DNA of 63,024 bases from Promethearchaeota archaeon Loki_b32. GTDB lineage: Archaea > Asgardarchaeota > Lokiarchaeia > Sigyniarchaeales > SOKP01. The notes below the pieces were generated by a model. It ran no database searches and had not been told where the DNA came from. It worked only from the letters and a program-made list of their open reading frames with translations. Below, piece after piece: positions 20,880 to 43,999 of this stretch. A program made the translations under genes and the position numbers. Positions within the stretch are counted from its first letter, which is position 1; every line of letters starts with the position of its first letter. The stretch is taken from contig NJBH01000021.1 in NCBI GenBank assembly GCA_005223125.1, positions 1 to 63,024 of the forward strand, given 5' to 3'.

Positions 20880-22396
20880 ATGAGTTATAAATTGCCAGAT
20901 AACAAGGACCTTGATGCTATGGTAGGCATTGTGGGAAAAGAGTACGCTACAAATAACAAAGCGATTACTGCGTCTTACTTGGCGAAATCAGTAATGGGTT
21001 TAGAAATCAATTATCCAAAATCGGATAATGACTAAAGAGCCAAATCCCTGATATCGTCATTCGACCTAAATACGTTGAAGAGATTCGCAAAATCTTAATC
21101 TACTGTTCCGCGGAGAAGATTGCAGTAAGTCCCGTCTCTGGTGGATTGTCTGGTGGATTTTCATGCCCAACAATCAAACCTGGCGGAGTTCTCCTTGATT
21201 TAGGAAGAATGAAAAGAATCATTGAAATCGATGAAGAAAATCGATTCGCAATTGTAGAACCTGGAGTAACAATAGGAGAACTCTGGGCATATATGCATAA
21301 AAATCATCCTGATTGGGCACCACCAATACCAGATGGAGCTCCACCAGCCTCTACAGTTATGGGTGATGCTATTGATAGAGGATTTTCATTATACACTTCA
21401 AGTGTGGGGCCACAAGGAGACAATTTTATGTGTGCTGAAGTTGTGTTTCCAAATGGCGATGTTTTAAGGACTGGTTCTTGGGCATTACCAACTGCGAAAC
21501 CATTCTACAAATATGGACTTGGTCCTGATATATGGTCTTTTTTGATGGGCAGTCAAGGGACTATGGGAGTAATCACAAAAGTGGTGGTAAAGATTTATCC
21601 ACATCCCGAATTTAAAACAGTAGTTGTATGGGGTATGTCAAATCCTTATGACATGCAGAATTTAACATTGGAAATCCAAAAGCAAGAATTTGGGATTGCA
21701 CATAATACTGTTATGGTGCAAGGTGGGAATTACCCTTTAGTAATGACCCGATGGCCTAAAGATAAAGTTCCACATGATTATGAATTCTATGAGGAAATAG
21801 GTATTTCGAAATGGTGGATGAATTTTGAAATATGGTGTCAAACCGCTGAGGAACTTGATTATGTGGTCAATAGAATTGATAAGATGGCAAAGGATTATAA
21901 GAAGAATAGAGCTAAAGACCCCGATTCAATAAAATCTCAGGAACTCCATCCAAAACAAATCGCAAGTAGATTAAAAAAGCCAAATAAAATTGCAATACCT
22001 TATGGTTTCTGGGACGCTGGTTTCTTATTTATTACTTGGTATACTCCATGGCCAGAATGTGCCCATTTCTGTGAAATATATTGTAACGCAATGGAAAAAT
22101 ATGGTTTTCCACCCACGATGTGGGTTGCTTCAATTGAGCGTGCTAGACAAGCAATTTGTATGCCTATCATTTGCTTTGATAGCACAAAGACAGAAGAACT
22201 CGAAAGAGTACAAGATTTGAATAGAGAGACTACTGAATATGGTCTGAAACAAGGATGGTTGAATTATCGACCAGATCCATACATTCACATCCAAGCTTAT
22301 TACCAAGCGGGAATGTACTGGAAATACTTGCGCATGTTTAAAAAACTGGTTGATCCAAATGGAATTTTACATCCTGGGAGGCTTGCTCTTCCATAA
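20880..22396 (+). CDS. FAD-binding oxidoreductase (GlcD-like), 494 aa, spliced: join(20880..21005,21038..22396)
   Basis: Exon 1 MSYKLPDNKDLDAMVGIVGKEYATNNKAITASYLAKSVMGLE joins in frame to SQIPDIVIRPKYVEEIRKIL after removal of 32 nt; GSQGTMGVIT and DPNGILHPG motifs. Confidence 0.88.
21006..21037 (+). other. 32-nt BHB intron in an mRNA
   Basis: GGU-[UUAG]-AA^A-UC(A)AUUAUCC-loop-GGAUAAUGA-[CUAA]-AG^A-GCC: 4-bp helix, two 3-nt bulges, paired flanks; removal fixes both frameshift and stop. Confidence 0.85.
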
Positions 22397-22416
22397 ATAA
22401 AGGAGGTTAATAAAAA

Positions 22417-23841
22417 ATGGCTAAAACAGGAATGGAAAGATTAGAAGAGTTAAAAAAAGATATATATCGTTGTATTCATTGTAAAGCTTGTAAATTTGCT
22501 TATTCTGGTGAACCAAGTAGAGAGGGAATTGGTGAATGGAAAGGTAAAACGGATAGAACCTTTTTATATGAAGGAATGGTGGATGCTTGTCCAGCAGGTA
22601 TCGAATATGGATGGGAAGCTTTCTGGAATGCAGGTAAAATGTGGATTGCCCGATCAATTTTAAGTGGGGACTTAGAATTTAGTGATGAAGTTAGGGATGT
22701 CATTCTACCATGCATTACGTGTGGTCAATGTACAGCTCAATGTGATAATAAAATTCGTACTGTTGATATTATTGAATCTTTAAGAGCAGCATGTATAGAA
22801 TCTGGAGTGCCAATGATAGAAAAACATGAATTAGTAGACAAACTAGTGAAAGAGCGAAATAACCCATACGGTGGTGCTGCTGCTGATAGATTTAAATGGG
22901 CTAAAGATGCCGGCCTGGAGAAGTTTATCAATAATAAAGATGCGAAAATTGCATATTATGTAGGATGTACAGCAAGTTACCGTCAAATAGAGGTTGCTGT
23001 TTCGACTGCTAAGTTATTCGAGCTATTTGGTATGAATTTTACGATAGTTGAAGATGAGGTATGTTGTGGAAGTCCATTTTTCAGGATAGGAGCAGTTGAT
23101 ACCGCACAGGGATTAATGAGGAAAAATCTTGAAGCTTTCAAAGATATAGACATGGTATATTTCAGCTGTGCTGGGTGTTATAGAACGCTTACCATTGATT
23201 ACCCCAAATGGATGGCTGAAGACGAAGAACTTCCTTTTAAAACACAACATGCATTTGAACTAGTAGCAAGGTTAGTCCAACAAGAGAAAATCAAATTCAA
23301 ACTAAATAAGGAATTAAAAGGAAAGGTGGTTACCTATCATGATCCCTGTCATACTGGTAGACATTTTGCAGTTGATATGGAACAAGATATAATCGCGAAA
23401 TCTAAGAATCTTTTGATGGACAGTCGAAAAATTAAAAGAGCAATTGATGAATGGTATGAGGTCCCACGTATTATTCTTAGAAAACTTGAAGAAGACGTAG
23501 GGATAGTATTCAAAGAGATGTATCGAATAAAAATTGATAGCATGTGTTGCGGGGCTGGTGGAGGTGTAAGAGCAGGATATCCTGAATTTTCTCTCAGAAC
23601 CGCAAGTCTTCGATGTGATGAAGCGAATGCAGTAGGTGCGGATATTCTAACAACCGAATGCCCATTTTGCTGGAGGAATTTATCCGATGCAAATGATATG
23701 TACAATCACGGTATGAAAGTTTTAGGAATTCTTCAGATGATCACAGAATATAATCTTTTGGAGATTTTAGAAAAGCCTAACGAGAAAGATTTCTTAACAC
23801 CATCTATTAGAGAAAATATGGAAGAGAAACCTAATAAATGA
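22417..23841 (+). CDS. Fe-S oxidoreductase (GlcF/HdrD-like)
   Basis: CIHCKAC...CP and CITCGQC...C ferredoxin motifs, two CCG domains (VCCGSP, MCCGAGGG), YHDPCH; GGAGG SD upstream. Confidence 0.9.
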   Translation: MAKTGMERLEELKKDIYRCIHCKACKFAYSGEPSREGIGEWKGKTDRTFLYEGMVDACPAGIEYGWEAFWNAGKMWIARSILSGDLEFSDEVRDVILPCITCGQCTAQCDNKIRTVDIIESLRAACIESGVPMIEKHELVDKLVKERNNPYGGAAADRFKWAKDAGLEKFINNKDAKIAYYVGCTASYRQIEVAVSTAKLFELFGMNFTIVEDEVCCGSPFFRIGAVDTAQGLMRKNLEAFKDIDMVYFSCAGCYRTLTIDYPKWMAEDEELPFKTQHAFELVARLVQQEKIKFKLNKELKGKVVTYHDPCHTGRHFAVDMEQDIIAKSKNLLMDSRKIKRAIDEWYEVPRIILRKLEEDVGIVFKEMYRIKIDSMCCGAGGGVRAGYPEFSLRTASLRCDEANAVGADILTTECPFCWRNLSDANDMYNHGMKVLGILQMITEYNLLEILEKPNEKDFLTPSIRENMEEKPNK

Positions 23842-24020
23842 GCAATGGCTCATTAAAATCTTATTTCTTTTTTTAAATTATCTAGAACTCAGGAATTTTA
23901 TTTTTTTGGTATTAAATAATCTTTAACATAGAAATGTTTTCAAATTGAGATATCACATTTAAAAATTAAATAATCTTAATGTTAATTTAGATAGTTTTAT
24001 TTTCTTGAGAGTGAAATTTC

Positions 24021-24891
24021 ATGGACCGTAAAAAATTAATACCAATTATAGCAGCAGGAATTATTGTGATACTGGTAATCGCCTTAATTGTAATATTTAT
24101 TCCACCCGGGGTAAAACCAACACCAGATACTCGGAAAGCAATCATACTCAGCAGTGCAAATGATTATTATAGAAGAGATGGGGAACCTGATTTTAATGAT
24201 GGAGAAGATGCGATATTTGATAGTGAACCTTTCCCTCCCAAGTGGATGGAAAATTACAGAAATAATAGTTATGGAGGAATTGATTCCTCTATACCGGTCA
24301 TGAGACTCCTGGAGTTATACAATTAATTGTATATAGTCCTGCTAATCCCAAATATGTTAATGCGGAGTTCGTATATAATTGGACAAAGTATTATCCATTA
24401 CTTAAATTTGCAGCATATAATCTTTCTGCTTGGGTTAATATAACAACTAATGCTTGGGCGCCTACTACAATAGTACCTCCAGGAACAGGGGCAAGAATAG
24501 GATTACGTTGGTTAAATTCTACTAATGATATTTTAAGAGAAGATTGGTCAATGGGTTTATTTAATACCTTTACAGGTTGGACTTTTCTAAATGTAACAGC
24601 CATAGCTGATAATTCCTCTCTAACCGAAATAACTCAATTACATTTAGTTTTAGCAGTTGAAGGTAATATGACTGGCACTGATATGGTACTTTTTGATGAT
24701 ATTCGAGTAGAAAGATGGTTCCCACCTCCAATTCCTATCCCAATTCCAAGTAATACAGATGCTGATGGCTTTCCTGCCCAAGCACTCCAGGTTTATTGGG
24801 TTTTAAAAAATCATATCTAGCACCTCTAATTCAAGATAATCTAGGTATAAAGGATACTTGGAGCTTCAATAACAGCAATCCACAATTATAA
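24021..24891 (+). pseudogene. Degraded membrane-anchored protein, possibly caspase/C13-peptidase-like
   Basis: One-base frameshift near 24297 links ORFs 24021 and 24551; after VYWVLKNH the sequence jumps to a C-terminal APLIQDNLGIKDTWSF...*. Confidence 0.6.
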
Positions 24892-25034
24892 TTAATTTTT
24901 ATTTTACATTTCTATATATTATTCTGGCAGTTCTTTTAAAAGAATTTTTTAAATATTAGTAAGTTTCTTGTAGTGGAGGATTTTTTAAACATTTATGGAT
25001 GGTATTACTTAAAATTTAAATTAATATTAGTCTT

Positions 25035-25392
25035 ATGTCCGATCATAGCTCGAATAAAGAGATTGCTGACGGGAATGTTACATTTCATTTCGAAGTAGAG
25101 GATAGTTATATCTCTGAAACAGAATTCTATTATAATAACCTCAACAACAGATGTTTTTGCATGGTTCTGGCGTGATAATAATAATGGAGATGGATTTGCG
25201 GGATCATGGTTCTTTCATCAATTTTGGAAGCAATTAAATCAGAGTCACACAATAGGAGACGCTTTCAATTTGGCAAGTAATTTCATTCCAGCAGGTCAGG
25301 TCAAATCTATATTTGAAATTCAATCTCCATTAATTCAAGATAATTTAGGAACTAAAGATGTTTGGAGTTTTACCAGTAATCCTCCGTTATAA
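25035..25392 (+). pseudogene. Second paralogous C-terminal remnant of the same family
   Basis: MSDHSS...SYISETEF, frame change, then FAGSWFFHQFW...IGDAF...QSPLIQDNLGTKDVWSF*. Confidence 0.6.
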
Positions 25393-25542
25393 ATCCTTTT
25401 CTTTTGGAATTATGGATTTTTAATATAGCATTGATAATTTCATTTTAATTGAGATTTCTGAACAAATGCAGTTATCTTCACTTAAATTTATATTACAATT
25501 ACAATTAATTCTAATTTAATACAACAATGACAAAAGATCATA

Positions 25543-26178
25543 ATGAAAAGAGTGTTGAAGAAGAATAATAAAAGGAATCTTCTTAAGCCAATTATCTTTA
25601 TAACACTATTTTTAGCAATTATATCTTTTCAGATTTTCAATTATTTAGGGAATCTAAACGAGAATCAAAACAACTACTTTAATAACGAAGATCTATTGAT
25701 CGCTCAAGACACTACAGCACCAATTATTATTTTTCTCCAACCACTTGTAAACAATACAATAATAAAACCTACCACATACACCATAAAAGCGAATATAAGT
25801 GATGATAACCCTCCATTGTATGGGAATGTTACACTACAAATGTCAAATCATACAGCCTTCTTATTCAATGTTACAATGGAGTATGATGGTGAAAATCTAT
25901 GGAGCTTTAAATGGGATAATATAAGCTCTTATTCTAACCTAGATGTATATATAATTCAGGTGTGGGCTAAGGATTCTTCCCCAGATGAAAATCAAGGTAA
26001 ATCGAATGAATTTTATATATATTTAAGTATTATAACTGATGCTCCAGGGATATTAACTATACTTCTTTATGTTTTCGCTGTTTCGATAATTTTTGCAGGA
26101 GTAATTGTATGTTTAAATAAAAAATTGATGCCTAAATCATTAAGAAAAAAAAGAGGGAAAGAATTAAAGGTGTTTTAA
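25543..26178 (+). CDS. Bitopic membrane protein with Ig-like domain
   Basis: N- and C-terminal TM helices; DTTAPIIIF...YIIQVWAKD beta-sandwich pattern. Confidence 0.7.
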   Translation: MKRVLKKNNKRNLLKPIIFITLFLAIISFQIFNYLGNLNENQNNYFNNEDLLIAQDTTAPIIIFLQPLVNNTIIKPTTYTIKANISDDNPPLYGNVTLQMSNHTAFLFNVTMEYDGENLWSFKWDNISSYSNLDVYIIQVWAKDSSPDENQGKSNEFYIYLSIITDAPGILTILLYVFAVSIIFAGVIVCLNKKLMPKSLRKKRGKELKVF

Positions 26179-26376
26179 AAGACTAGGAACCTTATTTTCA
26201 CTGGCTCTTATTTTGAACAAATATCAATAAATAAAAGGATAGTAATTAAACTTGTTGATGTTAACCCTTATATTAGAAAGTTCAATGAATCCCATATTTT
26301 CGATTCCAAAAAAATAAATGTATATATTTTCATTAATTACAAAAAATAAAATTAACTTCTTCGGGGATTTTTTACA

Positions 26377-29300
26377 TTGAGTAATGTGGAAAAGAAATTT
26401 GCTTATCCTTATATTACTAAATTTAAAAAGGAGCCATTTAAATCATTTACAAATATCAAAAGAAGAAAGATTCGAAACTATTATTATAGTGAATATAGTA
26501 AATTAGTTGAATTCTATCAACATTTTAATCACATCCTAGTAAATGATTTTAACCTCAATCTAGAGAATATTTTTTGGCTTATTTTACTAAGGAAATACCT
26601 CAAAGAAGAAAAGAGAAAAAATAGAGATGATATATTTAATTTCATTAAGAAGTGTGAAATTCGACAACATGATCAAATAGGATTCAAAAATACACCACTT
26701 TCTGAAAAAAAACCTGATATTTGTTCTACTTATTTTGCGTTATCCAGCTTAAAAAATCTAGGTCTTCTAAATGAATATCTAATTTCCGAAGGCCGGACTC
26801 AAGTAAAAGAACAAATAAAAAATTTCATGTTATCATTAATAAAGAATCACAGATTTTTACACTGTCAAGATAAGGAATGTGAGATTTGTAAAAGCATCTC
26901 ATCTACAAGATTGTTATTTTATGTCTTGGAAATTTTCACAATCCTCGGAGTTGATGTTCGTGTCAATAGGGATCAATTCCGCTCTTATGTGGATGAAAAA
27001 AAAAGAGATTCTTCTTTAATTTTTAGATTACTTTGTCTTAAATATTTAGATCTGGACTTAGAAGTAAAAGATAAAGAAATTCAATTGATTCAACAGCTTC
27101 AGAAGGAAAGTGGCGACTATAGTTTTGATCAGAGTGAAAATATTGATATCACTTTTTGGTCGGTTTATAGTCTTGAATTACATTCATGGCTATTGGATTA
27201 TAATCCTGCAGGAATCTATTCTTTTATTAATCGAAAATTAAAAGAAATCTTAATAACTCAAGATAATTGGAATCCTAGTTTATTAAATGAAACTTCAAAA
27301 TTAATCATTCTTTTATCCATTGTCTGGAAGAAGTTCATTGGAGAAATCGAAAGAGTGTTATTTAAGCATTTAGAAAGAGATAAATATATAGATATGAATC
27401 AGTTAAAGTCAACCTTTGGTTTAGCAGATAACATTGAGGAACTGGTTTTATATATTAACCTAAATTATAATTTTAAATTAAAGATTATAGATAATGAGAT
27501 TGAATTCAAGAATTATATTAATAATTTTAGTCAGGGTAAGAAAGAATTCTTTCAAAATTTCTATGATAAACTCAATAATAATAGTATCGTTTCTCTTTCT
27601 GATCTTTTTAAAAGATATAAAACACATGATCTAGAACCATTAAAATTGAAGGAAGAAGTTTTCCCAATAATCCGTGATATGGTTGAAAAAAGATTTTTTA
27701 TAGGTAACATTAGAACTAAGAAGGTTTTTTTTGGATTTAAAACAAGATATTTATTTTATTTAAAATTCTTATTAAAGAAAATAATTACAAGTGATGTAGA
27801 TTTAAATACGGAAAGTCTATATAAAGAAAAAGAAAAGTTGGATGATATTAAGAATGATATTTACAATATGACTTTAAAATTAAAAAATGTATCTTCTCAA
27901 ATACGAGAAGAAATAGAAAGCTATCTTTTAATTAATGAGGTTGATTATGCCAGGGCACGCTTAAAATTTATTCTACGCGATGCTTTAATGGAAGCCGATT
28001 TTTTAAATGAAAATATTGAGAGCTCTTTTAATGAAGTTCTTAAATATGTTAACATTCAAGCGAGTTTAGGTTCAGAGATTTCTCAATGGAAAAAAGCGTA
28101 TTCTATATTACAAAAAAGATTAATAGAAGTTGAATCATATCTCAAAGGAAAAATTCAAGAAAAGGAGGAATTAAGAAATTTAAATAGCTTATTAGAAAAT
28201 CTAAAAGAAAAAATTAATATCATAGAAGAAGATTTAATTAAAAAGTTAGATTCGTTCAGAAAAGATTTTACTGAAAACCTTGAAAAAGGATTTAATAACG
28301 AAATATTAGATCTCATTATTCAAAGTTTAGATAGACTTTCTCAGAATATAAGAAAGTATGACCACGTAATTTATAGTGTCTCTCAAAAGATTACTGTTAA
28401 AGAAAAAAAAATTGTTAAGAAGCACAAGAAAATAATAGATAATTGGATAAGAGTTAAAGAACAGTTTGATATCGAATTTAATTTTTATACCGATGGTTTC
28501 CAATTTTTTAACATTAACTTACAAAAAATTGACGAAATCAATGAGCGAATAAAATCGGATATAACAGAAATTGGAGTGAGAGCTAAAAGTAAAATAAAGG
28601 AGAATAAATTTCAGGAAGCATTCAATTTTACCAAAAGAGAATATGATCTTTTAATGAAAGATAGATTAACTGAAATTAAAGAACTTCAATCAATTACAAA
28701 ACATGAAATAAAAAAGAAGCAGAAACTCTATTTACTTTATCGTCACTTGCAAGAGAAGTTAAAGCATTTAGAAACTGAATTAATTGAATTAATAGCTAAT
28801 CAAGTAAAAACTTTAAAAAACTATATTATAGAAGAAAGAAATAAATCCAAAATAGAAGATTTTGATAATTTTATTTCACAAGAAAGTGTAAAATTAAAAT
28901 CTCAATTAAATCTGATCAAAAGAAATTTTGATCAATCTGATAGGTTAAAAATAGATTATGTTATTAAAGAATTTGATAATGTCCAGACTAATTTTAACAA
29001 AGTAGATAAATTGTATTCGAAAAAATTATATGATTGTAGTCGAAATATTGAGAATTTTAAGGAAAAGTCAGAATTAAGTATCATCCAATGGGAAAAATTC
29101 AAAGATTTTTTTAGCAACGAAATATCAGTTTTAAAAGATGATTATGTCAATAAAATTATTTCAAATAAAATTAACTTAATGGCAATTGAGAATAAAACAA
29201 ATGTTATTAAATTAGCTGATTTAAAGGATGAAGTAAATCTATCGTGCAAAGTTATTATAAATAGATTAAAAGAAATGATAGATATTTCAAAAATTAATGC

Positions 29301-30786
29301 AGAACTTAATGAAGAGGAAAAATTTATTTTGGTATATACAGAATACTATTATTTAAATAAAGAAATTAAGAACTATATTGATAATCAACTATTAAAATTA
29401 AACAGAGAGAGAATTGGTAAAATTTTAGCTTTATATGATTCAAGCATAAGGAATAGAACCTTAAATGTAAATATGTTAGAGCTTCAAAACAGAATTAATG
29501 AATTAAGAATTTTTGATGATTATTTCCCAAACCAATTCTATGAAAAAGTTAAAGAACTACGAATTAATCAAGAGAGAGAAGAATTCCTTGAAACCAAAAA
29601 ACGATTTGAGTCAATTTTAGAAAATGAGAGAACTGCAATAAATAATATAAAAAACAACTTGAGTTTGTTTAATAAAAAGCAAACCTTTATCGAAAAGCAA
29701 TTTACTACCCTGAATGTTAAATTAAGAGAATATGCTAATAAAGTTTTCACAAAAGTTGAAGGTTATGATAATTATATAAAAATTCAAGAGATATTTGAGA
29801 GTAAGAAACTAGAATTAAAGGATAATTTGAAAAAAGCTCAAGATAAAATTGATATGCAAATAAATTCAATTATGGAGGCAACACCAGATTCAAATAAGTT
29901 AATTCCTGAAATCAGAGAATCATATGTGAGAATAAAAAACTCTTTTACAAATGAATATGAAAATAAAATAAAAAAAATTAATGATCAGATTATTGTATTG
30001 AAGAATGAATCATTTCGCGAACAAATACTTAATATCATTAATGATACTAAAATACATTTGAGCCAATTACTTGGTAATTTAGAAAGAAAAGTAGAAGACA
30101 ACATTGAAATCAAAGAATTCAAGAAAATTAATATACTAATTCAAAGAAGAGCAAAAAGTATTGAATTGGAAACAAAGGAAGTTAAAAAACACATCTATGC
30201 CAAGTTTAAAAATTTTTCTAAAGAATCGAAAAATTTTAAACAAATATCAAAATTTATAATGGATGATTTTGATAAATTTATCGACGAATATTCAGAGATT
30301 TTAAATGAAAAAGTAAAAGCTTTGGAACGATTAATATTAAAATCATATATTGATATGACAATAAAGGCTGTAGCGAATGAATACTTGACAATTGGTTTTT
30401 TAAACAATGAATTGAAAATAAAAAAACAAAATATTCAAGATCATTTATTTTTCTTGATTAGTTCAGGAGAATTAAAAGGAAAGTTTGATCCTCGAATTTC
30501 CATATATTTCGAAAACCCAGAAATCTTAGATGAATTAGATGTAGCTGAATTAGAAGTAATAAAAAGTACTAACTATAAAGTAAATATGATGTTGCGCCAC
30601 ATAAAAAATTTAGCCAGTCAATATGGTAGTGTAATCGCTTTTTTTGCATCAATTATAACTATCTCGTATTATTTATTCCTTTTTAGTGGAAATAACCCTA
30701 CTGTAATTGCCATCCCTATAATTATTGCGATCCTTATTTTAGTGTTTTACGTTTTGAGAAAAGAAAAAGAGGACCAAGTTAAATGA
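26377..30786 (+). CDS. 1469-aa protein with prenyltransferase-like repeats, long coiled coil, PCI-like winged helices and 2 C-terminal TM helices
   Basis: PDICSTYFALSSL and LQKESGDYSF repeats; K/E heptads; LISSGELKGKFD; hydrophobic C-terminus. Confidence 0.7.
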   Translation: MSNVEKKFAYPYITKFKKEPFKSFTNIKRRKIRNYYYSEYSKLVEFYQHFNHILVNDFNLNLENIFWLILLRKYLKEEKRKNRDDIFNFIKKCEIRQHDQIGFKNTPLSEKKPDICSTYFALSSLKNLGLLNEYLISEGRTQVKEQIKNFMLSLIKNHRFLHCQDKECEICKSISSTRLLFYVLEIFTILGVDVRVNRDQFRSYVDEKKRDSSLIFRLLCLKYLDLDLEVKDKEIQLIQQLQKESGDYSFDQSENIDITFWSVYSLELHSWLLDYNPAGIYSFINRKLKEILITQDNWNPSLLNETSKLIILLSIVWKKFIGEIERVLFKHLERDKYIDMNQLKSTFGLADNIEELVLYINLNYNFKLKIIDNEIEFKNYINNFSQGKKEFFQNFYDKLNNNSIVSLSDLFKRYKTHDLEPLKLKEEVFPIIRDMVEKRFFIGNIRTKKVFFGFKTRYLFYLKFLLKKIITSDVDLNTESLYKEKEKLDDIKNDIYNMTLKLKNVSSQIREEIESYLLINEVDYARARLKFILRDALMEADFLNENIESSFNEVLKYVNIQASLGSEISQWKKAYSILQKRLIEVESYLKGKIQEKEELRNLNSLLENLKEKINIIEEDLIKKLDSFRKDFTENLEKGFNNEILDLIIQSLDRLSQNIRKYDHVIYSVSQKITVKEKKIVKKHKKIIDNWIRVKEQFDIEFNFYTDGFQFFNINLQKIDEINERIKSDITEIGVRAKSKIKENKFQEAFNFTKREYDLLMKDRLTEIKELQSITKHEIKKKQKLYLLYRHLQEKLKHLETELIELIANQVKTLKNYIIEERNKSKIEDFDNFISQESVKLKSQLNLIKRNFDQSDRLKIDYVIKEFDNVQTNFNKVDKLYSKKLYDCSRNIENFKEKSELSIIQWEKFKDFFSNEISVLKDDYVNKIISNKINLMAIENKTNVIKLADLKDEVNLSCKVIINRLKEMIDISKINAELNEEEKFILVYTEYYYLNKEIKNYIDNQLLKLNRERIGKILALYDSSIRNRTLNVNMLELQNRINELRIFDDYFPNQFYEKVKELRINQEREEFLETKKRFESILENERTAINNIKNNLSLFNKKQTFIEKQFTTLNVKLREYANKVFTKVEGYDNYIKIQEIFESKKLELKDNLKKAQDKIDMQINSIMEATPDSNKLIPEIRESYVRIKNSFTNEYENKIKKINDQIIVLKNESFREQILNIINDTKIHLSQLLGNLERKVEDNIEIKEFKKINILIQRRAKSIELETKEVKKHIYAKFKNFSKESKNFKQISKFIMDDFDKFIDEYSEILNEKVKALERLILKSYIDMTIKAVANEYLTIGFLNNELKIKKQNIQDHLFFLISSGELKGKFDPRISIYFENPEILDELDVAELEVIKSTNYKVNMMLRHIKNLASQYGSVIAFFASIITISYYLFLFSGNNPTVIAIPIIIAILILVFYVLRKEKEDQVK

Positions 30787-30814
30787 CGATTGATTTTGAT
30801 TTTCATTGTATAAA

Positions 30815-33116: not shown

Positions 33117-33356
33117 TTACTCAACTGGGAAAAATAAAATTTTATTTTTTGCATCTTGTCGATTTACTAATTTCTTTTCTTCTAACATTTTTATAGTCAA
33201 AACAATCCATCCACGAGCAACTTGATGGAGAAATCTACTACGATTAGGATAAATGGCTCTAATAATGCTTTTTGGAGATATTCCATTTTCTGAATTTTCA
33301 TAAATTATATCTAATACTTGATTTTCTAGAGCTTTTAAATATTCAACAAAAAGTTT
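33117..33356 (-). pseudogene. Start-less C-terminal winged-helix-like remnant
   Basis: 80-codon frame KLFVEYLKALENQVLDIIYENSENGISPKSIIRAIYP...ARGWIVLTIKMLEEKKLV...FFPVE*. Confidence 0.55.
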
Positions 33357-35304: not shown

Positions 35305-35440
35305 TAGAATTAATAGGATTAAAATTAGTTCAATTTACATCTGAATTTCTATTTTAATAGTGCAAACTAATATAAAAAAGGGTTTTTTATACCTAAATAT
35401 TTTTCAATAACGCCTTGGATTTCTTGTTTTGTGCCAAAAT

Positions 35441-35608
35441 TTAGTTTACTTCCCCAATTAAATGTTTTATTGCTTTTTTTGTTCCATAACCGGCATCATA
35501 GATTATGCCATCAGAACCAGCTAAAACATAGATATTTTCGGGTGGTTTTATTGCTCCAGAAGTCCCTTTTTCTTTTATTAAAAAAATACCGGGATAAAAT
35601 TCAATCAC
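35441..35608 (-). pseudogene. N-terminal remnant of an MBL-fold metallo-hydrolase
   Basis: VIEFYPGIFLIKEKG...PENIYVLAGSDGIIYDAGYG; stops before the HxHxDH motif. Confidence 0.6.
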
Positions 35609-35811
35609 GAATTTAATAAATTATAGTAGAAAAAAAATTTTATGATTCAAAACAACCTCTTTCTTATTGTGCTCAAAACGATTACGTAGTATGTTATTGC
35701 AAGTAATAAAATTTGATTCTTCATTTCTTGCACATTTAAATTTGAAAGTTACTTTATTTATTTTATATTTAATAATAAAGGTAAATTCAACAATTTAAAT
35801 TAGGAATTAAA

Positions 35812-36225
35812 ATGTATTGTACAAAATGCGGTTCTGAAATACCTGATGATGCAAAATTTTGTCCTTTTTGTGCAGAACTTATTGATCGCTCAACTAGCCC
35901 TCAAATTCAACCGACCTCTCAGGCTCAACCAACACCAACACCCTATCAGGGACCCACCCATATACCTCTAAAGTCATCAAGTTCTACAGGCGCAAAAATA
36001 GCTGTTGTTCTCGTGGTAATAATAATTGGAATTGTTTTAATATATGCTGGATTCCAAACAATGTTTAGAGTACCTACTACTGGTATCACCATGCTTATAA
36101 TAGGTATTATAATACTTTGTATAGTATGTACTGTAAGTAGTTCGGGATCACGCCGTGGAGGATATAGTGGTGGTGGTTGCGATTGTAGTGGATGTGATTG
36201 TGATTGTGGAGATTGTGGTAGTTAG
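35812..36225 (+). CDS. Zinc-ribbon protein with 2 TM helices and Cys-rich tail
   Basis: CTKCG...FCPFC; tail CDCSGCDCDCGDCGS. Confidence 0.8.
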   Translation: MYCTKCGSEIPDDAKFCPFCAELIDRSTSPQIQPTSQAQPTPTPYQGPTHIPLKSSSSTGAKIAVVLVVIIIGIVLIYAGFQTMFRVPTTGITMLIIGIIILCIVCTVSSSGSRRGGYSGGGCDCSGCDCDCGDCGS

Positions 36226-36271
36226 ATATCATTTTCTTACGAGAGAGATATAAAATTAACAATCGAACAAA

Positions 36272-36778
36272 ATGATGGATAACCAAAAAGATAAACGTCA
36301 AAATGATAAAAAAGTAATTATCAATTGGTTAGCACATCATAATCCAAATCGCAATGATTTCGATGATCACGTAATTTATATATTTAACCATGCTATATGT
36401 TTAGGATGTTTTGCTTTTCTTTTAGGAGCTACTGTCGCGTTAATAATAGGAAATGGATTTTATTTTTACATTATAAATTTTATTAGTCTGCCTATTACTC
36501 TCATGTTCTTCTTGTTATGTTGGAGCCCCTCAATTTTCCAGTATTTAATTCAAATAATAAGAAATAAGCCATTCAAAAATCGAAGAGTAAAATTCCTATG
36601 TCGTGTACTTTACCCAATTGGGAGTATCATATTTGTATTTAAATCTCCATTCTGGGGTCTAGGTATTTCTATTGCTGCTGGTTATATGATAATAGGTATT
36701 AGAAAAATATTCTATAAAAACAAAACTTTAATCTCAAAACGTAAATTAAGAAATCAAAATTTTACTCCAGAAATCTAA
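36272..36778 (+). CDS. Membrane protein with His/Cys motif (DUF2085-like)
   Basis: AHH...H...ICLGC followed by TM helices. Confidence 0.6.
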   Translation: MMDNQKDKRQNDKKVIINWLAHHNPNRNDFDDHVIYIFNHAICLGCFAFLLGATVALIIGNGFYFYIINFISLPITLMFFLLCWSPSIFQYLIQIIRNKPFKNRRVKFLCRVLYPIGSIIFVFKSPFWGLGISIAAGYMIIGIRKIFYKNKTLISKRKLRNQNFTPEI

Positions 36779-37034
36779 GACTTTGTCATGCGAGGCTATT
36801 TTTTTTTAGTATTGATATCAGAAAATCAACAGTTCAAATAATTAATTTTTATCTAAGATTTTAGAAGCTGATTAGTAGAATCTGATGAGAATTTAATAAC
36901 ACTTTTCTTTAAAATTAAAGAAATAAATTTATAAAATGATAACAATTTTAATAATTTCTTAACGACTATTGCTTAAAACAAAGGAAATAATAAAAAAAAA
37001 GAAAAATTAGGATTTTGTATTAAAATGGGATGAT

Positions 37035-37244
37035 TTAAAAATACTTAATTGCAAGTAAAATGTCGTCCCTTGTTATTTTCTTACGCTTTGCATGCTTCGT
37101 GAGTGTTAGGGCAGTTTTGGTAAGTTTTTCAGCGCTTTTACTCATCCAATCAACTAACTCATTAACGGCATCTCGAGCAACAATAACAGCTCCATTGTGC
37201 TTCATTAGCCGTCTGATAGGACTCCACGAAATATATTCGGCCAT
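37035..37244 (-). CDS. Archaeal histone, intron-less copy
   Basis: SPIRRLMK...VARDA...HAKRKKITRDDI histone fold. Confidence 0.95.
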   Translation of the reverse strand: MAEYISWSPIRRLMKHNGAVIVARDAVNELVDWMSKSAEKLTKTALTLTKHAKRKKITRDDILLAIKYF

Positions 37245-37324
37245 TTTTTTTTTCCTCTACTATATAGTTATTTTCTTTAATTTTTATTGAAATTTGTTAT
37301 TTTTTAAGAGTTTGTTACATACAT

Positions 37325-37576
37325 ATACATCTTTTAGATATTTAAAGATTTTTATTCATACATAGTTTTATGGAGAAAAAAATAGAAACAATTGAACGAC
37401 AAAATTCGGAATTAAGAAGATGATCAATCTCGTGAAAGTTAAGATTTTTTCATGGAAATTATTATTTCTGCTTGAAATTGAAACTGTGTATTATATTATC
37501 TTTTCAATTTTCTGTCAGTTATGCAAAAAAAGTAAAATTGAAAAAAATAAAGAAAAAATAATCAAATTGTGAAACG
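37325..37576. repeat. Duplicated non-coding upstream region, copy 1 (copy 2 at about 38226..38475)
   Basis: Shared blocks TATTTAAAGATTTTTATTCATAC, AACGACAAAATTCG, TCAATCTCGTG, ATTATTTCTGCTTGAAATTGA, AAAAATAATCAAAT. Confidence 0.85.
37339..37346 (-). promoter_or_regulatory. Putative TATA box of histone copy 1
   Basis: TTTAAATA preceded by an A-rich BRE-like stretch; identical upstream of copy 2. Confidence 0.55.
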
Positions 37577-37907
37577 TAAAATTATCTTTTTTTTAAGAAT
37601 CTGTGACATAAAAACTGATATTTTCATATTAAAAATTAGAGCGATAGAGTCATTAACATTAAAGAATTAGGGATAAGTATTCTGTTAATAAACTCTTCCT
37701 CAGTAAAAGATGCTTTTTCAATCAACCCCTCATATTCAAAGAAACTAGTTGCCCAGTAAATTCCGTATTATATTATTTGTATAAATTTAACTATTTTGTT
37801 AGGAAAAGATTATCAACTAAAAAATCAAGAATAGAAAAAAAAAGAAAAAATTATAAGATTTTTATAGGTTCATTAATTTCCTCGAAGGCTTGGCTGAACC
37901 AAAAAAG

Positions 37908-38147
37908 CTAAAAATACTTAATTGCAAGTAAAATGTCGTTCCTTGTTATTTTCTTACGCTTTGCATGTTTTGTGAGTGTTAGGGCTGTTTTGGTAAGTTT
38001 TTCAGCGCTTTTACTCATCCAATCAACTAACTCATTAACGGCATCTCGGGCAACAATTTTAGCTGGCGAATAAGAGTTTTATTAACCTAAAGCTCCATTG
38101 TGCTTCATTAGCCGTCTAATAGGACTCCAACTAATATAATCTGACAT
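37908..38147 (-). CDS. Archaeal histone, 69 aa, spliced: complement(join(37908..38058,38089..38147))
   Basis: Missing from the ORF track. Spliced product MSDYISWSPIRRLMKHNGALIVARDAVNELVDWMSKSAEKLTKTALTLTKHAKRKKITRNDILLAIKYF differs from copy 1 at 4 of 69 residues. Confidence 0.85.
38059..38088 (-). other. 30-nt BHB/BHL intron in histone mRNA
   Basis: [AGCU]-UU^A-GGUUAAUAA-AACUC-UUAUUCGCC-[AGCU]-AA^A; contains in-frame UAA UAA; absent from the adjacent paralog. Confidence 0.8.
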
Positions 38148-38239
38148 AATAAATTTTTCCTCCACGTTTTTTTATTTTTGATTTTAATTTTTAATTTTTG
38201 ATTAAATTAAATTAACTAAATATATATAGATCTTTTGTA

Positions 38240-38247
38240 TATTTAAA
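38240..38247 (-). promoter_or_regulatory. Putative TATA box of histone copy 2
   Basis: TTTAAATA in the same context as copy 1. Confidence 0.55.
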
Positions 38248-38671
38248 GATTTTTATTCATACTTAGTGTAATAGAAAAAAAAATAAAAAAGATCAAACGA
38301 CAAAATTCGAAATTATAAAAATATTCAATCTCGTGTAAGTTAGAACATTTTCATGGAATTATTATTTCTGCTTGAAATTGAGACTTTGAATTATATTATC
38401 GTTTCAAAATTCTCTCAGATATGCAAAAAAGATGATGGTGAAAAAAACAAAGGAAAAATAATCAAATAGTGAAACACAGGATAAATAAATTTTTGAAGAT
38501 CTACTATATGATTTAATTTTAAAATTAGGGACTATAGCTTCTTTAAGATTAAATTACTCTATCATATTGAAAAAATTGAAGAAAATTTTAATGTAATACC
38601 ATTTAACTTAATCAATTTTTAATTGAAAAGAAAATTCAATTAAATTATTACAGTTAAGAATTTAAGTACAC

Positions 38672-39115
38672 TTAATATCTTGGTAAATCTTTCGTTTCTT
38701 GATAATATGATTCGATACCTATTTCTTTCATTCGATTATTAATTTGAATCCATCTTTGCTTAAGATGGGAATCAAAATTAGTTTTTTCGCAAGGAAACTC
38801 ATCACATTGGAAGCAAAAATCTACACCTTTATCTTCATAACAGTCTCTAACACCACAGTCAGGATACAAGCAAGAACCTTTTCTACATCCAAGACAATTC
38901 TCTTCTGTTAAATAAGTGAGTAATGCTTTGAAAGAAGGATATTCTTTAAATATCGGGAGGAATGATGAAAATCTTTCAGCGTATATATCGAAGGACCCTA
39001 ATAGCTCTTGAAGTTTAACACTACTTTTTCTTATTCCACCTTCAGAGTTAGCAAAACATTTATAACAATTAAGCCCACATGGGGCAAGCTTGTTTAATAT
39101 ATCTTTATATTCCAT
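38672..39115 (-). CDS. DUF3795-like Cys-rich protein
   Basis: APCGLNCYKC, CLGCR, FCFQCDEFPC. Confidence 0.8.
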   Translation of the reverse strand: MEYKDILNKLAPCGLNCYKCFANSEGGIRKSSVKLQELLGSFDIYAERFSSFLPIFKEYPSFKALLTYLTEENCLGCRKGSCLYPDCGVRDCYEDKGVDFCFQCDEFPCEKTNFDSHLKQRWIQINNRMKEIGIESYYQETKDLPRY

Positions 39116-39238
39116 TTTCTTTTCTTATTTCATTTTTTTTCTTATTTTATACGTGAGTAATTGAAATATTCACAAGAAGATTTACCTTGTCTATAGAAGA
39201 TTTTAAATAGGTAAATTAAAAATATTGTTTTAATCTTT

Positions 39239-40240
39239 TTACCAGACGTTTTGTTCGTAATTACAATTTTGACATTCAACAGACTCGTTTTTTTGAGGAA
39301 AATACGGAAGAATTGCTCCACAATTCTTACACTCTAAATCATGAACTTTATCTTTAGAGTTTACAACTCCATTCAATATCAAAAATTGTTTGAAATCATT
39401 TGTAACTTGGGTTAAAAAGGATATTAATAGATATTGATTTGGTGATGAAGCTATTATTTCAATTTTATTTGACACTATTCGTCCGACTGCTAGAATATCT
39501 TCTTTAATTACAGATTCCGTACCAAAATACCATAATATTCTTTTTTCAACATCTTTAGCAACTAACTGAAAATTATGGATTGAAAAAAGTTGTTCTAAAA
39601 TGTCATAAATTATTTCAGAATGTACTTGGTGCTCAATTCCGATGCCCATACTCTTAATAACTTTCTTAATTCTCGGTTGTTGTGAGAATTCTCTTATGTA
39701 ACTTGAAGGAACTACTTTAGGCTCAATTGATATTTTATCAATAGATATTTCTACTGGTCTTGAATCCAATACTCTAACGGTATCTTTATTATTTACATAA
39801 GTAACAATTGTTCTAAGTTCTCCTGTTTTATCTAGAGCATTTGGGGCAAGATGAAGATGAATTTGTTTACTGCTCTTTTCATTTAATTCATCGAATTCTA
39901 AATTTATTTGATTAGTATCTTCATCAGATGTCATACGAGGAATACTGATTGTAGGAGGAAAGGCTCTTATGAGTGTTAAAAATTCTGGTAACTTTATTTT
40001 AATTTTCATTTCGGTTATGGGGGCTAAACTTTGATTAACGATTAATATTGAGTATCGGAAATGACCTCCAAAAGGAGAATAAGTACACCTGCACAAAATT
40101 TTATTCTCTTGATCTACACTCTCAAATGAGTATTGATCTGCTTTTTTTCTTTTAGTATCTTCTTTCTCTTTAAAAAGTACTAAATCCTGTGTCTTGAATT
40201 GGCTTAATCCTTTCTCTTTTTTAGGCATAATATTATACAA
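39239..40240 (-). CDS. Ig-like sandwich plus platform-like domain plus zinc ribbon (adaptin-appendage-like, tentative)
   Basis: Beta-rich YSILIVN...ITEMKIKI...TIVTY, alpha/beta segment, CKNCGA...CQNC. Confidence 0.5.
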   Translation of the reverse strand: MYNIMPKKEKGLSQFKTQDLVLFKEKEDTKRKKADQYSFESVDQENKILCRCTYSPFGGHFRYSILIVNQSLAPITEMKIKIKLPEFLTLIRAFPPTISIPRMTSDEDTNQINLEFDELNEKSSKQIHLHLAPNALDKTGELRTIVTYVNNKDTVRVLDSRPVEISIDKISIEPKVVPSSYIREFSQQPRIKKVIKSMGIGIEHQVHSEIIYDILEQLFSIHNFQLVAKDVEKRILWYFGTESVIKEDILAVGRIVSNKIEIIASSPNQYLLISFLTQVTNDFKQFLILNGVVNSKDKVHDLECKNCGAILPYFPQKNESVECQNCNYEQNVW

Positions 40241-40347
40241 AAATTTCTTGTCATGGATTGCTGAATTGAATTTTCGGAGACTAGATAATTAATAAAATTA
40301 CATTCTGATTTAAATTTTTTTTTAACTTATATTATTTAATTATATAC

Positions 40348-41034
40348 TTGATTGCAATAATGTTTGAAGAATTAGATACTTTATTCCAAAGTCCTACAAT
40401 AAAGCCATCATTTGAAAAAGTCCATGTTATTTTAGCTTTATTTATATTTGAGGAAAATAAGGACGGTATTGGAAGATATCGTTTACAAAAAGAATTATTA
40501 ATTGGTTCTGGAACAGCAAGATCTCTTATTAAGAAATTGAACGAAATTATTAATTTTATAACAGTATTAGATGATGAAAATAAGAAAAAAGGTCATGTTC
40601 TTACTAAAAATGGTATGAATTTCCTAAAAAGAATTAAACAGAAAATCCCACTAATAGAGGGGGGAGATCCATCAGAATTAGAGGATATAATTATTAAATC
40701 AGAAGGTTTTAATCCTTGTTTTTGCTTAATAAGAAATGCTTCTAATAAAATAACAAATGGAATTGAGCAGAGAGATGCTGCTATTAAAATTGGTGGTGTT
40801 GGAGCAACTTGTTTGATCTTTAATGGTAGAGATTTAATTTTTCCTTCACAAATAATTTCTGAAAATGAAAAAGATCAAATGAGAGTTGCAAATACAACTT
40901 TCAATTATATCGTTAATCTATTTGATAAGAAAAATTCTCAATTAGAAGAAAATGATGTTGTTATTATAGGACTAGACGAGAATCCTGAAAAAGCAAGGTT
41001 AGCAGCTCTGAATGCTGCTTTAACAATATTGTAA
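40348..41034 (+). CDS. Winged-helix protein (DUF4443-like)
   Basis: IGRYRLQKELLIGSGTARSL; GIEQRDAAIKIG..GAT. Confidence 0.75.
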   Translation: MIAIMFEELDTLFQSPTIKPSFEKVHVILALFIFEENKDGIGRYRLQKELLIGSGTARSLIKKLNEIINFITVLDDENKKKGHVLTKNGMNFLKRIKQKIPLIEGGDPSELEDIIIKSEGFNPCFCLIRNASNKITNGIEQRDAAIKIGGVGATCLIFNGRDLIFPSQIISENEKDQMRVANTTFNYIVNLFDKKNSQLEENDVVIIGLDENPEKARLAALNAALTIL

Positions 41035-41058
41035 TATAGGGGGTTAGATGTTTATCAA

Positions 41059-41550
41059 TTGAAAGTTGAAAAAGATATAATTCTATTTGTCAATCTTGAC
41101 GTTTTAGACGAAATTAAACGATGTGTTAAGAAAGCGTACCCTAATGAAGCCTGTGGCTTAATTTTTGGTACAATTCTTGAAAAAAAAAAACTCAATAGTG
41201 AAAATGAATATTCTTATCACTATTATGGTTATAAATTTGAATGTATTGAATCTTCACGAAAAAGTCCAGTTGCTTTTTTAATGGATGATTATAATAAATT
41301 AGTAGAAATCTCGAGTAAATATTCTAATGACTACAATTATCAATTACTTAGTATATTTCATTCTCATCCGGGTAGTGCTTATCCAAGTGGAGTAGATATT
41401 CCATATATGAAAAGTTATTATAAGAGTGGTATATCTAAATTTAAATATTTAATTTGGACCATTATGGATATGAATAGTGAAGAATTAAATGGGTTTATAT
41501 ATATTTTTGATGAACTTAAGCAAATATCAATTCAGATTAAAAAAGAATAA
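41059..41550 (+). CDS. JAMM/MPN+ metalloprotease
   Basis: PNEACG and FHSHP...PSGVD. Confidence 0.9.
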   Translation: MKVEKDIILFVNLDVLDEIKRCVKKAYPNEACGLIFGTILEKKKLNSENEYSYHYYGYKFECIESSRKSPVAFLMDDYNKLVEISSKYSNDYNYQLLSIFHSHPGSAYPSGVDIPYMKSYYKSGISKFKYLIWTIMDMNSEELNGFIYIFDELKQISIQIKKE

Positions 41551-41565
41551 TCTATTAAAAAAGAA

Positions 41566-42207
41566 TCATTCCGTTTGAGAAAAACCGTTTTTATCAATTG
41601 TACATAATTGAATTTTATATCCAGAGCCAGCATCTCTTTCTCGGGAGCTAGAAATTGCTGTTTTTATAAGCTCAATACCCTTAGCTTTAGTTAAATTAGG
41701 CTTCCAGTCCGCTTCTAGCACACCAAGACTAAAAGGGCTACCGCTTCCAAATGATATAAAGCTATCCTCCTCATACAACGTACCTAGAAGATCGATCCCA
41801 TAAAGTTTTCCAGATTTTTCTTTACGTGAAAAACCGCCGATTAAGATCATTGAAACGAAAAAACTTCTGCCGCTGAATAATATATTACGACAAATGCTAG
41901 CTACATATTTTGGTTCGGGAACTCTCTCTTCCTCAACTTCTTTTAACCGAGATAATGCCTTTAATTGATTAACTACATATGAACAATCTGCCACACCCCC
42001 GGCAATAGTTGCAGCGGTATATTTATTAATTTCAAATAACTTCTGGGCTTGTTTGGACACTACGAAGGTTCCTGCAGTCGCCTGACTATCTGTGGCAACA
42101 ACTACTCCGTCTTTAATCATAATCCCGACTGTTGTTGTTCCTGTTTGAAGCATCTTCTCATATTGTTCATGATCCAATTGTTTCTTATTAAAATTATTTT
42201 CCATCAT
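41566..42207 (-). CDS. psmB: Proteasome beta subunit
   Basis: Propeptide followed by TGTTTVG, GSGS, RDAGSG. Confidence 0.95.
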   Translation of the reverse strand: MMENNFNKKQLDHEQYEKMLQTGTTTVGIMIKDGVVVATDSQATAGTFVVSKQAQKLFEINKYTAATIAGGVADCSYVVNQLKALSRLKEVEEERVPEPKYVASICRNILFSGRSFFVSMILIGGFSRKEKSGKLYGIDLLGTLYEEDSFISFGSGSPFSLGVLEADWKPNLTKAKGIELIKTAISSSRERDAGSGYKIQLCTIDKNGFSQTE

Positions 42208-42386
42208 TTTGCTTAGATTTAGAAACTGTTTTATTGAATAGCTAAATTAGTGATACATAATAAATAAAAATTTGTTCTATATTTATTTTACTTTAATAAA
42301 TCATAACTCACTGATATTTACAAAAAATTTTAAAGATATAATTTCTTATCTTACCTATTAAATGGAATAAGTTTGGTAATTCTTAA

Positions 42387-42764
42387 ATGGCTCGTAGTCA
42401 AGCGCGGAGTAGAAGAAAATATACTGGAAAAAAATATAAGCATTTTAGAAAGAAAAGAAAAAGAGAATTAGAACGTCCTAGAATAGCTACCATCATAGGC
42501 GAAGAGAAAAAAAAGAAAGAACGTGTCTTAGGTGGTAATATGAAGCTAAAATTATTTTCTACGAAGTTTATTAATGTAACAGATCTGAGTACAAATAAAA
42601 CTCAAAAGGTTAGAATATTAAGCTTTGAAGAGAATCTTGCTTCAAAAGATTTTAATCGAAGGCACATCCTAACAAAAGGAGCCATAGTTGAAACAGAATT
42701 AGGTAATGTAAAAATTACAAGTCGTCCTGGTCAACATGGAGTTCTAAATGGGGTTCTAGAATAA
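42387..42764 (+). CDS. rps8e: 30S ribosomal protein S8e
   Basis: TKGAIVETELG..KITSRPGQHG. Confidence 0.97.
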   Translation: MARSQARSRRKYTGKKYKHFRKKRKRELERPRIATIIGEEKKKKERVLGGNMKLKLFSTKFINVTDLSTNKTQKVRILSFEENLASKDFNRRHILTKGAIVETELGNVKITSRPGQHGVLNGVLE

Positions 42765-42932
42765 GAATTCAAAAACATTGATTTAGAACGTTTTTCACTA
42801 CTTCAATCTTGGTACTTGATATTGAGTACCAGGTACCCCAAGTCCTTCTTTTACAGGAATTTTTTTTTACCATATAAGTAGCAGTAGAAAATTTCATAAA
42901 ACTTTTTGAAAAGGGGTAAATAGTGATCAAAA

Positions 42933-43304
42933 TTATTCTTGAATTTTAATATTCTTTACATTTGCTTTTTTACCTTCAATTATTTCTGTATTATTACTCC
43001 CACAATGAGAACACTTGAATAACTGAAGTCCGGTCAATTGTGCTTCTCGAGTCAAAGATATTTCTGAAGTTTTATTACATTCTCGACATTTGACTTTACC
43101 AGGAGTTATTTTAATTACTAATTCTGCACCTTCTGCAATTGATCCTTTCGTAGCCATTTCAAAAGATCGTTGAAGGAGTTCAGGAACTATAAGTGTTAAC
43201 TCCCCAATTTCAAGTAAGACTTCAGAAATTTTTTTAGCATTATATTTTAGTGCTGTAGCTTCAGCCACCTTAAAAATATTATAAGCAAAGGCAAATTCAT
43301 GCAT
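42933..43304 (-). CDS. hypA: Hydrogenase maturation nickel metallochaperone
   Basis: Start set at the MHE motif (43304); CREC and CSHC Zn ligands. Confidence 0.92.
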   Translation of the reverse strand: MHEFAFAYNIFKVAEATALKYNAKKISEVLLEIGELTLIVPELLQRSFEMATKGSIAEGAELVIKITPGKVKCRECNKTSEISLTREAQLTGLQLFKCSHCGSNNTEIIEGKKANVKNIKIQE

Positions 43305-43314
43305 GATAGGAAAA

Positions 43315-43635
43315 TTAAGCTTTCGTGTGTAGCTTTCTAATTTCTTTAGCAACTTCAAGCAGTACTTTATTCTTTTTTTTGCCTTTTAAATCTATTAACA
43401 CTCTTCCAGCGTCATCCCACCATGTTCTAGAATATTTATAATTTCTCTCTATTTCCACATTATAACCAAGATTCCTTGCTGCTTTAGATATATCTTCTAA
43501 ACTCACTTTATCGATCGCAAATTTTTTAGAAAGTCGTCTTCCATTACTCCGGCTTCTTTTTGCATCAAAATATTGCGGCCAAAAGATAATATATGGTTTT
43601 CTAGAACGCATGATTTTAATTAATATAGAAAACAA
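43315..43635 (-). CDS. srp19: Signal recognition particle protein SRP19
   Basis: IFWPQYFDAKRSRSNGRRL, YSRTWW..GRV. Confidence 0.93.
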   Translation of the reverse strand: MFSILIKIMRSRKPYIIFWPQYFDAKRSRSNGRRLSKKFAIDKVSLEDISKAARNLGYNVEIERNYKYSRTWWDDAGRVLIDLKGKKKNKVLLEVAKEIRKLHTKA

Positions 43636-43895
43636 AAATATAGAATTTAATATAAAAAACCCTTAAAAGAATATAAAAATTATCAGAATAGTTAATTTGT
43701 TTTATTTTATTTGAACTTAAAGTTTTATATGGTATAATAAAAAACATAATTTTTAACGGTAAAACTCTTTTATAATATTAGTTTTACTTGTCTATACCAG
43801 CACTTTAATAAGATTAGTTATTTAATTCTTTGATTATCTCTTGATTATAAGAGATAATTGATAAAATCTTTGAAAAGAGAAGCCTGTTTAGCAAA

Positions 43896-43999
43896 GGGAG
43901 GGTGGTCTAGCTTGGTATGATACTCGGCTGGGGGCCGAGTGGTCGGGGGTTCAACGGGCTTCCCGTTTCGGGCATCCCGAAAAAATCCCCCCTCTCCCA
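43896..43999 (+). tRNA. tRNA-Pro(GGG) with a 30-nt intron at position 58/59
   Basis: Acceptor GGGAGGG/CTCTCCC, anticodon arm CTCGG-CTGGGGG-CCGAG; T arm GGGGG-TTCAA|AT-CCCCC restored by removing 43955..43984. Confidence 0.9.
43955..43984 (+). other. Non-canonical T-loop tRNA intron with relaxed BHB
   Basis: [GUUC]-AA^C-GGG...CCC-[GAAA]-AA^A-U; one G.A mismatch in the central helix. Confidence 0.8.

Follow-up and report, generated by a model that had tools for sequence, protein, structure and literature searches.

We examined a 63,024-nt stretch of the genome of Promethearchaeota archaeon Loki_b32, a member of the Lokiarchaeia (contig NJBH01000021.1, positions 1 to 63,024; hereafter the window), in which three short inserts interrupt a gene for a flavin adenine dinucleotide (FAD)-linked oxidoreductase, a histone gene and a gene for tRNA-Pro. 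The inserts in the protein genes are, with high confidence from sequence comparison, genuine mRNA introns that would be removed by the tRNA splicing endonuclease EndA and the ligase RtcB. We further consider it likely, with somewhat more reserve, that they belong to a general, spliceosome-free mRNA splicing in Lokiarchaeia: the tRNA endonuclease and ligase would serve tens of genes in each genome, both core and eukaryote-signature ones, and short introns would continually be born at new sites, up to four per gene, and be moved between species by homologous tract exchange, forming a living population of introns in the protein genes of prokaryotes closely related to eukaryotes. A preliminary description of this DNA had reported three unrelated inserts of 30-32 nt whose predicted cuts restore the host exactly. 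Both points held: the inserts measure 32, 30 and 30 nt, the best local alignment score between any two was 10 among 19 intron sequences compared, and canonical bulge-helix-bulge (BHB) cuts restored the host at all three (a 494-aa oxidoreductase, a 69-aa histone and a tRNA cloverleaf).

The open reading frame of the oxidoreductase (FAD_binding_4 family) starts with an ATG at 20880 on the forward strand and is disrupted after codon 42 by a 32-nt insert (21006-21037), which shifts the frame and contains an in-frame TAA. Based on the ortholog alignment, exon 1 (42 codons) occupies 20880..21005 and exon 2 occupies 21038..22396; excision in silico yields a predicted product of 494 aa, in line with intron-less orthologs. 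The RNA can form a strict hBHBh' motif (20997..21041) with a central helix TTAG/CTAA (21000-21003 paired with 21032-21035), a 3-bp outer helix (20997-20999 paired with 21039-21041), two 3-nt bulges (21004-21006 and 21036-21038) and an inner hairpin. For this and the other BHB inserts, the predicted cut falls after the second base of each 3-nt bulge. Among 30 congeneric orthologs, the insert at codon 43 was present in 8, the window copy included, and exactly those 32 bases were absent in 22. Its recurrence in 7 of the 29 other congeneric genomes rules out an assembly artefact. The seven complete carriers, once spliced, are intact (493-494 aa) and show ratios of nonsynonymous to synonymous substitution (dN/dS) of 0.045-0.108 with dS up to 2.1. 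Around the junction, all seven share the same nine codons, which vary in non-carriers, although the six closest carriers also show invariant runs of 10-11 codons elsewhere, so that junction identity is weak taken alone. An exact look-up of the truncated oxidoreductase products gave no match and so did not bear out the mis-annotation as pseudogenes suggested earlier. The window holds three FAD-linked oxidoreductase paralogs (1-972, 2857-4386 and 20880-22396), and only the last has an intron.

The histone gene lies on the reverse strand (38147-37908, ATG at 38147) and carries a 30-nt insert (38088-38059) between exon 1 (38089..38147) and exon 2 (37908..38058). The insert is in frame and contains two TAA codons. 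Its central helix (AGCT/AGCT) is accompanied by a 3-bp inner helix and lacks a directly stacked outer helix, which corresponds to the relaxed HBh' form; in local folds computed with ViennaRNA, the central helix had a pairing probability of 0.95-0.99. Without the insert, the product is 69 aa long and 94% identical to an intron-less 69-aa archaeal histone encoded on the same strand at 37035..37244, which served as an internal reference. The insert is not an assembly error, because an independent Joint Genome Institute (JGI) contig (Ga0209977_10002650) has an identical intron with synonymous differences in the exons. The two histone genes stand in tandem, and their upstream and coding sequences are alike (37035-38200); a second tandem copy is present at the loci of few relatives.

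In the tRNA-Pro(GGG) gene (43896..43999, forward strand; 74 nt when spliced), a 30-nt insert (43955..43984) is located in the T-loop at about position 58/59. Its central helix (GTTC/GAAA) has one G.A mismatch, and the pairing probability was about 0 in the same type of fold. The site differs from 37/38, the borders are of the BHB type and removal restores the cloverleaf; the insert is an ordinary member of the known non-canonical archaeal tRNA introns. ARAGORN called the wrong end for this gene, and it had no Rfam match. Relatives' tRNA-Pro genes contain introns at the T-loop site and at other non-canonical sites, and one of them (L174 in G023) has another sequence at the same site. Over the whole genome, ARAGORN counted only 15 tRNAs; it has probably missed most of the tRNA genes on account of non-canonical introns. 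A second tRNA-Pro-like gene of this genome (C45:35732-35906) apparently contains two introns.

We then compared the BHB geometry with chance expectation. Of 15 independent sites that alignment had revealed without use of the motif, 13 had the full 4-bp central helix and 2 had three of its four pairs. The helix formed at a frequency of 0.027 at random coding positions and 0.226 for the best of ten registers (P = 2.6e-7). The best-of-ten value is the fair null, because the cut register had been picked by eye or by motif score within the range that the alignment allowed. When the real inserts were transplanted to random coding sites, the helix formed in a fraction of 0.014. As a further control, mirror and antisense geometries were examined at the predicted cuts, and no site gave four pairs. 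The 3' bulge began with A in 18 of 18 cases (genomic A frequency, 0.35), with one exception (L256) among loci added later, and the inner hairpins averaged -5.2 kcal/mol compared with -0.9 kcal/mol. Natural frame-preserving indels that the same pipeline detected were mostly 12-27 or >60 nt long and had no motif. In the stem of an intron in the gene for ribosomal protein uL11, 96% of the pairing was kept, with double-sided changes at two pairs; this covariation score was reached by 1 of 500 shuffles, with relatedness uncontrolled. The inserts do not resemble group I, group II or spliceosomal introns: they are 28-53 nt long, their borders are not GT-AG and Rfam gave no match in the window.

The genome (4.13 Mb, 30% GC, 95.5% complete) contains at least 14 interrupted protein genes, namely the oxidoreductase and histone genes and 12 verified outside the window. 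Eight of the 12 were verified by exact absence in relatives: uL11, an elongation factor 2 paralog (P-loop), a nucleotide-sugar epimerase/decarboxylase, a ubiquitin-conjugating E2, a small Cys-rich protein, CdhD and two unnamed genes. The remaining four were verified by restoration of a conserved motif: RNase HII, pyrG, gyrB (a 53-nt intron, C56:37059-37007, L332) and the proteasome alpha subunit (a 29-nt intron, C4:22685-22713, L333). The gyrB, pyrG, uL11 and RNase HII genes are the sole copies in the assembly, and all are interrupted. In uL11, a 28-nt frameshifting BHB intron (C57:12438-12465, L208) disrupts the only gene; across the genus, uL11 introns were found at 18 of 30 loci (L346-L375) in three positions, with three in one gene in G005 and G064. 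The E2 gene, which encodes a eukaryote-signature protein, has a 31-nt BHB intron (C30:11080-11110, L211) and lies ~3 kb from a ThiF/E1-like gene. The genome's own cbf5 and its four ThiF/E1 genes had no internal stop, and cbf5 was uninterrupted. The stops and frameshifts, the purifying selection on carriers and the interruption of single-copy genes bear out the earlier proposal that expression depends on removal of the inserts. The same proposal placed the mRNA introns in the 5' part of genes, which is true of both in the window; however, relatives have oxidoreductase introns at codons 130-460 as well, and this genome also has mid-gene introns.

Inserts were also present among relatives. Across 80 named loci of the oxidoreductase gene, 16 had inserts, at 11 positions and as far as Jordarchaeales; one of the 16 is 120 nt long, mostly N, and uninterpretable. 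The 30 congeneric orthologs have four further inserts of 28-32 nt elsewhere in the gene, four in the copy of one genome (G035). Considered as an intron-dense genome, G035 was set aside, as no other clear case appeared in 296 kb aligned. Overall, BHB inserts of 28-37 nt occupy 15 positions in the oxidoreductase gene and five in the histone gene, the histone introns all being 30-31 nt. At codon 43 of the oxidoreductase gene, L256 has a different 31-nt sequence with the helix kept; likewise, the histone gene of G076 has another intron sequence at the window's site with the helix retained. A 26-nt apparent insert at L059:2412 (G022) was rejected as an N-filled assembly duplication. Three oxidoreductase orthologs (L278, L282 and L286) and L062:2216-2245 carry 30-nt BHB inserts that are in frame and free of stops; if unspliced, such inserts would add ten residues, and pseudogene screens are blind to them.

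The distribution of the codon-43 intron suggests how it spreads. G031 and G021 are nested within the carrier clade and lack the intron; over codons 30-65, they are 85-86% identical to the nearest carrier, compared with 95-99% downstream. Conversely, G003 stands outside the carrier clade and has the intron; its identity to this genome is 98% over codons 30-65, a value that partly reflects constraint on the motif itself, and 77-78% downstream. We infer that gain and loss of this intron between species proceed by allele replacement through short recombination tracts, in both directions. The mosaic identity along the gene in L042 (G003), L039 (G031) and L041 (G021) suggests that such tracts are frequent between species of the genus. 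The source of new introns left no trace in our searches: no donor copies were found in the genome, similarity between introns was not above chance and no target-site duplications were seen at the inserts (equivalent shifts, 0-3 nt). The introns nevertheless share a narrow length range.

The preliminary description had called for a relaxed EndA and an RtcB-type ligase, and the genome encodes RtcB and an EndA predicted to be of the relaxed, two-subunit type, both of which would act on mRNA. EndA alpha has the catalytic triad Tyr143/His151/Lys183, and its best PDB match is the alpha subunit of A. pernix (E = 2e-35). Its Lys60-Pro61-Arg62 aligned to the Crenarchaea-specific loop of the A. pernix enzyme (K44-P45-R46), and this loop has been linked to relaxed substrate recognition (PMC12397907). 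A second EndA paralog lacks the His of the triad, so that a catalytic alpha subunit with Tyr/His/Lys would be paired with a structural beta subunit without the full triad, as in two-subunit-type enzymes. RtcB was identified with an E-value of 1e-170. The EndA paralogs are encoded at C18:184 kb and C2:78 kb, and RtcB is encoded at C48:37 kb. The two paralogs may assemble as (alpha-beta)2 and act on these RNAs. In the proposed mechanism, four exon bases of the pre-mRNA would pair with four bases near the 3' end of the intron, each strand then forming a 3-nt bulge; an (alpha-beta)2-type tRNA splicing endonuclease would cleave each bulge behind its second base, and ligation of the exons by RtcB would restore the reading frame. 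The tRNA-splicing machinery would thereby act as a low-frequency mRNA-splicing system on some tens of genes per genome in this genus of Lokiarchaeia. Introns would be gained at many independent sites and then gained or lost between species via homologous replacement of short gene tracts.

Several other explanations were weighed against EndA/RtcB splicing. If the inserts were scars of insertions, such as footprints of miniature inverted-repeat transposable elements (MITEs) or other repeats, the hairpins would be incidental and the genes pseudogenes. All of the inserts are indeed hairpins, and loss would be tolerable for both window genes, as an intact twin of the histone gene lies 0.7 kb off and the oxidoreductase has distant paralogs. 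However, the low dN/dS of the carriers, the lack of a second lesion in all seven complete ones and the interruption of single-copy gyrB, pyrG, uL11 and RNase HII do not fit pseudogenes; nor do the missing target-site duplication, the missing second copy in the genome and the 1.4% at which the inserts form the helix at random coding sites fit scars. This explanation is largely refuted, and we give it next to no weight. The purifying selection would equally be explained if the inserts stayed in the mRNA and were skipped in translation by ribosomal bypassing or recoding, like T4 gene 60. Like bypassing signals, the inserts are short interruptions of a coding sequence that hold a stop codon and form a hairpin, but they occur in all three codon phases and without matched take-off and landing codons, an untranslated tRNA has an insert of the same length class and geometry, and a helix between exon and intron with two 3-nt bulges is the signature of EndA and not of bypassing; skipping in translation is therefore very unlikely.

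Excision from DNA in part of the population, by site-specific excision or phase variation, would leave assemblies that show the inserted state, and close relatives nested among carriers that exactly lack the oxidoreductase intron are what it predicts. Yet in those relatives the flanking codons are also swapped, which points to allele replacement and not to clean excision; the motif is functional on the sense strand only and has RNA handedness, and no recombination site is common to the inserts, making excision from DNA as improbable as scars. The possibility to which we assign the most weight among the alternatives, while still regarding it as unlikely, accepts splicing and treats it as a regulated switch, in the manner of IRE1 acting on HAC1 and XBP1, that gates expression under stress. 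IRE1, a kinase-RNase activated by stress and not related to EndA, cleaves two stem-loops, whereas the cuts predicted here lie in BHB bulges and not in two separate loops. The stops or frameshifts in the introns, the involvement of core genes and the position of the intron-containing histone gene next to an intron-less twin would suit a switch. By contrast, intron positions are patchy with fast turnover, the target genes are functionally unrelated, most relatives manage without any given intron and EndA is a housekeeping enzyme.

Some observations weigh against EndA/RtcB splicing of these mRNAs. The central helix of the oxidoreductase intron had a pairing probability of 0.1-0.2 in local folds, and this intron, 97% paired, showed wobble changes and no double-sided covariation. 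Some motifs are weak, for example that of RNase HII, whose helix has three G.U pairs. The spliced oxidoreductase junction was not found in JGI metagenome contigs, in a scan without a positive control. A motif-first scan with a dicodon filter gave 133 sites, compared with 138-159 in mirror and frame-shift controls, and a refined scan gave 15 sites, compared with 10-20 in controls, the four strongest all being real.

The motif-first result is no evidence against the introns, because the sensitivity was poor: the refined list was without the oxidoreductase and uL11 introns. Still, it gave no sign of hundreds. Three motif-only predictions were subsequently confirmed by exact absence in relatives. 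In an alignment census of 1.14 Mb, five introns were found in the 1.09 Mb outside the window contig, from which we extrapolate 19 introns (95% range, 6-44) that are not shared with reference genomes, with the caveat that unalignable DNA may differ. The census misses an intron that the reference has too, as with RNase HII in G028, and it misses introns that lie close together, as with two of the four in G035; with shared ones included, introns would affect ~0.5-1% of genes. As estimated from these alignments, the load is in the range of tens of introns per genome, recurring in particular genes, and not hundreds. The expectation that such introns are frequent genome-wide thus stood in part: 14 were verified, in the window and elsewhere, but only tens are indicated and the motif-first scans had no excess over controls.

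The nearest known case is crenarchaeal. A pre-mRNA intron in cbf5 of Crenarchaea was reportedly described by Watanabe in 2002 and by Yoshinari in 2006. cbf5 was given as the only confirmed case of archaeal pre-mRNA splicing, the others being predicted (PMC2738675). As is seen or predicted for the Asgard inserts, the cbf5 intron of Desulfurococcales and Sulfolobales (Yokobori 2009, PMC2738675) is a short intron in coding sequence with BHB or relaxed borders, is cut after the second bulge base, is associated with a hetero-oligomeric EndA and has been gained and lost among relatives. In contrast, it is confined to a single site of a single gene and is cDNA-confirmed, whereas the Asgard case is known from sequence and belongs to another phylum. 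It affects at least 14 genes of the one genome, and the introns take many independent positions, with as many as four in a gene. Judging by these likenesses, the Asgard inserts appear to work in the way of the cbf5 intron of Crenarchaea, but in many genes and with fast turnover.

Introns of Asgard tRNA genes (bioRxiv 10.64898/2026.10.13.758758), like those of Thermoproteales, share with the tRNA-Pro insert the non-canonical site, BHB borders, repeated gains and two EndA paralogs. The Asgard preprint deals with tRNA genes only and contains neither the word 'mRNA' nor 'cbf5'; its introns have a median length of 22-23 nt, compared with 28-37 nt here. A BHB intron in the 5' untranslated region of Haloferax HVO_1309 (PMC7714728) is likewise an mRNA substrate of the archaeal splicing endonuclease, but it is a single case in an untranslated region with no reading frame dependent on it. 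The parallel drawn earlier with IRE1 splicing of XBP1 and HAC1 (PMC13149111, PMC10630183) extends to spliceosome-independent removal of a short frameshifting intron and, in metazoa, to joining of XBP1 by RtcB. It ends there: yeast HAC1 uses Trl1, IRE1 has one regulated target per cell, and the present inserts have BHB motifs and many targets. No report of BHB introns in coding sequences of Asgard archaea was found in the literature searched, in which subscription journals were mostly not covered.

With the exception of cbf5, archaeal protein genes have been regarded as free of introns. If the introns described here are spliced, a major Asgard lineage would need mRNA splicing for gyrase B, CTP synthase, a ribosomal protein, RNase HII, a proteasome subunit, a ubiquitin E2 and a histone, and the substrate range of the EndA/RtcB pathway would be wider. 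Gene calls, marker-gene completeness and inventories of eukaryote-signature proteins could then err at such sites. With dozens of independent recent gains and with intron-less sister alleles, the genus offers a tractable system of intron gain and loss. The suggestion that these introns bear on intron origins near eukaryogenesis found no support; the majority of positions have a patchy distribution inside a single genus, no connection of these introns to spliceosomal introns emerged, and by themselves they do not explain the origins of the latter.

Other features of the window were also noted. An open frame of 1476 codons extends over 26356-30786, and its product had no Pfam match. At 24015-25392, fragmented open reading frames with an internal repeat of ~70 nt look like a decayed or frameshifted gene; no BHB intron was flagged there in the scans. 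Directly downstream of the interrupted oxidoreductase gene, a gene with CCG-domain and 4Fe-4S features (22414..23841, forward strand), in which no intron was seen, is likely its operon partner.

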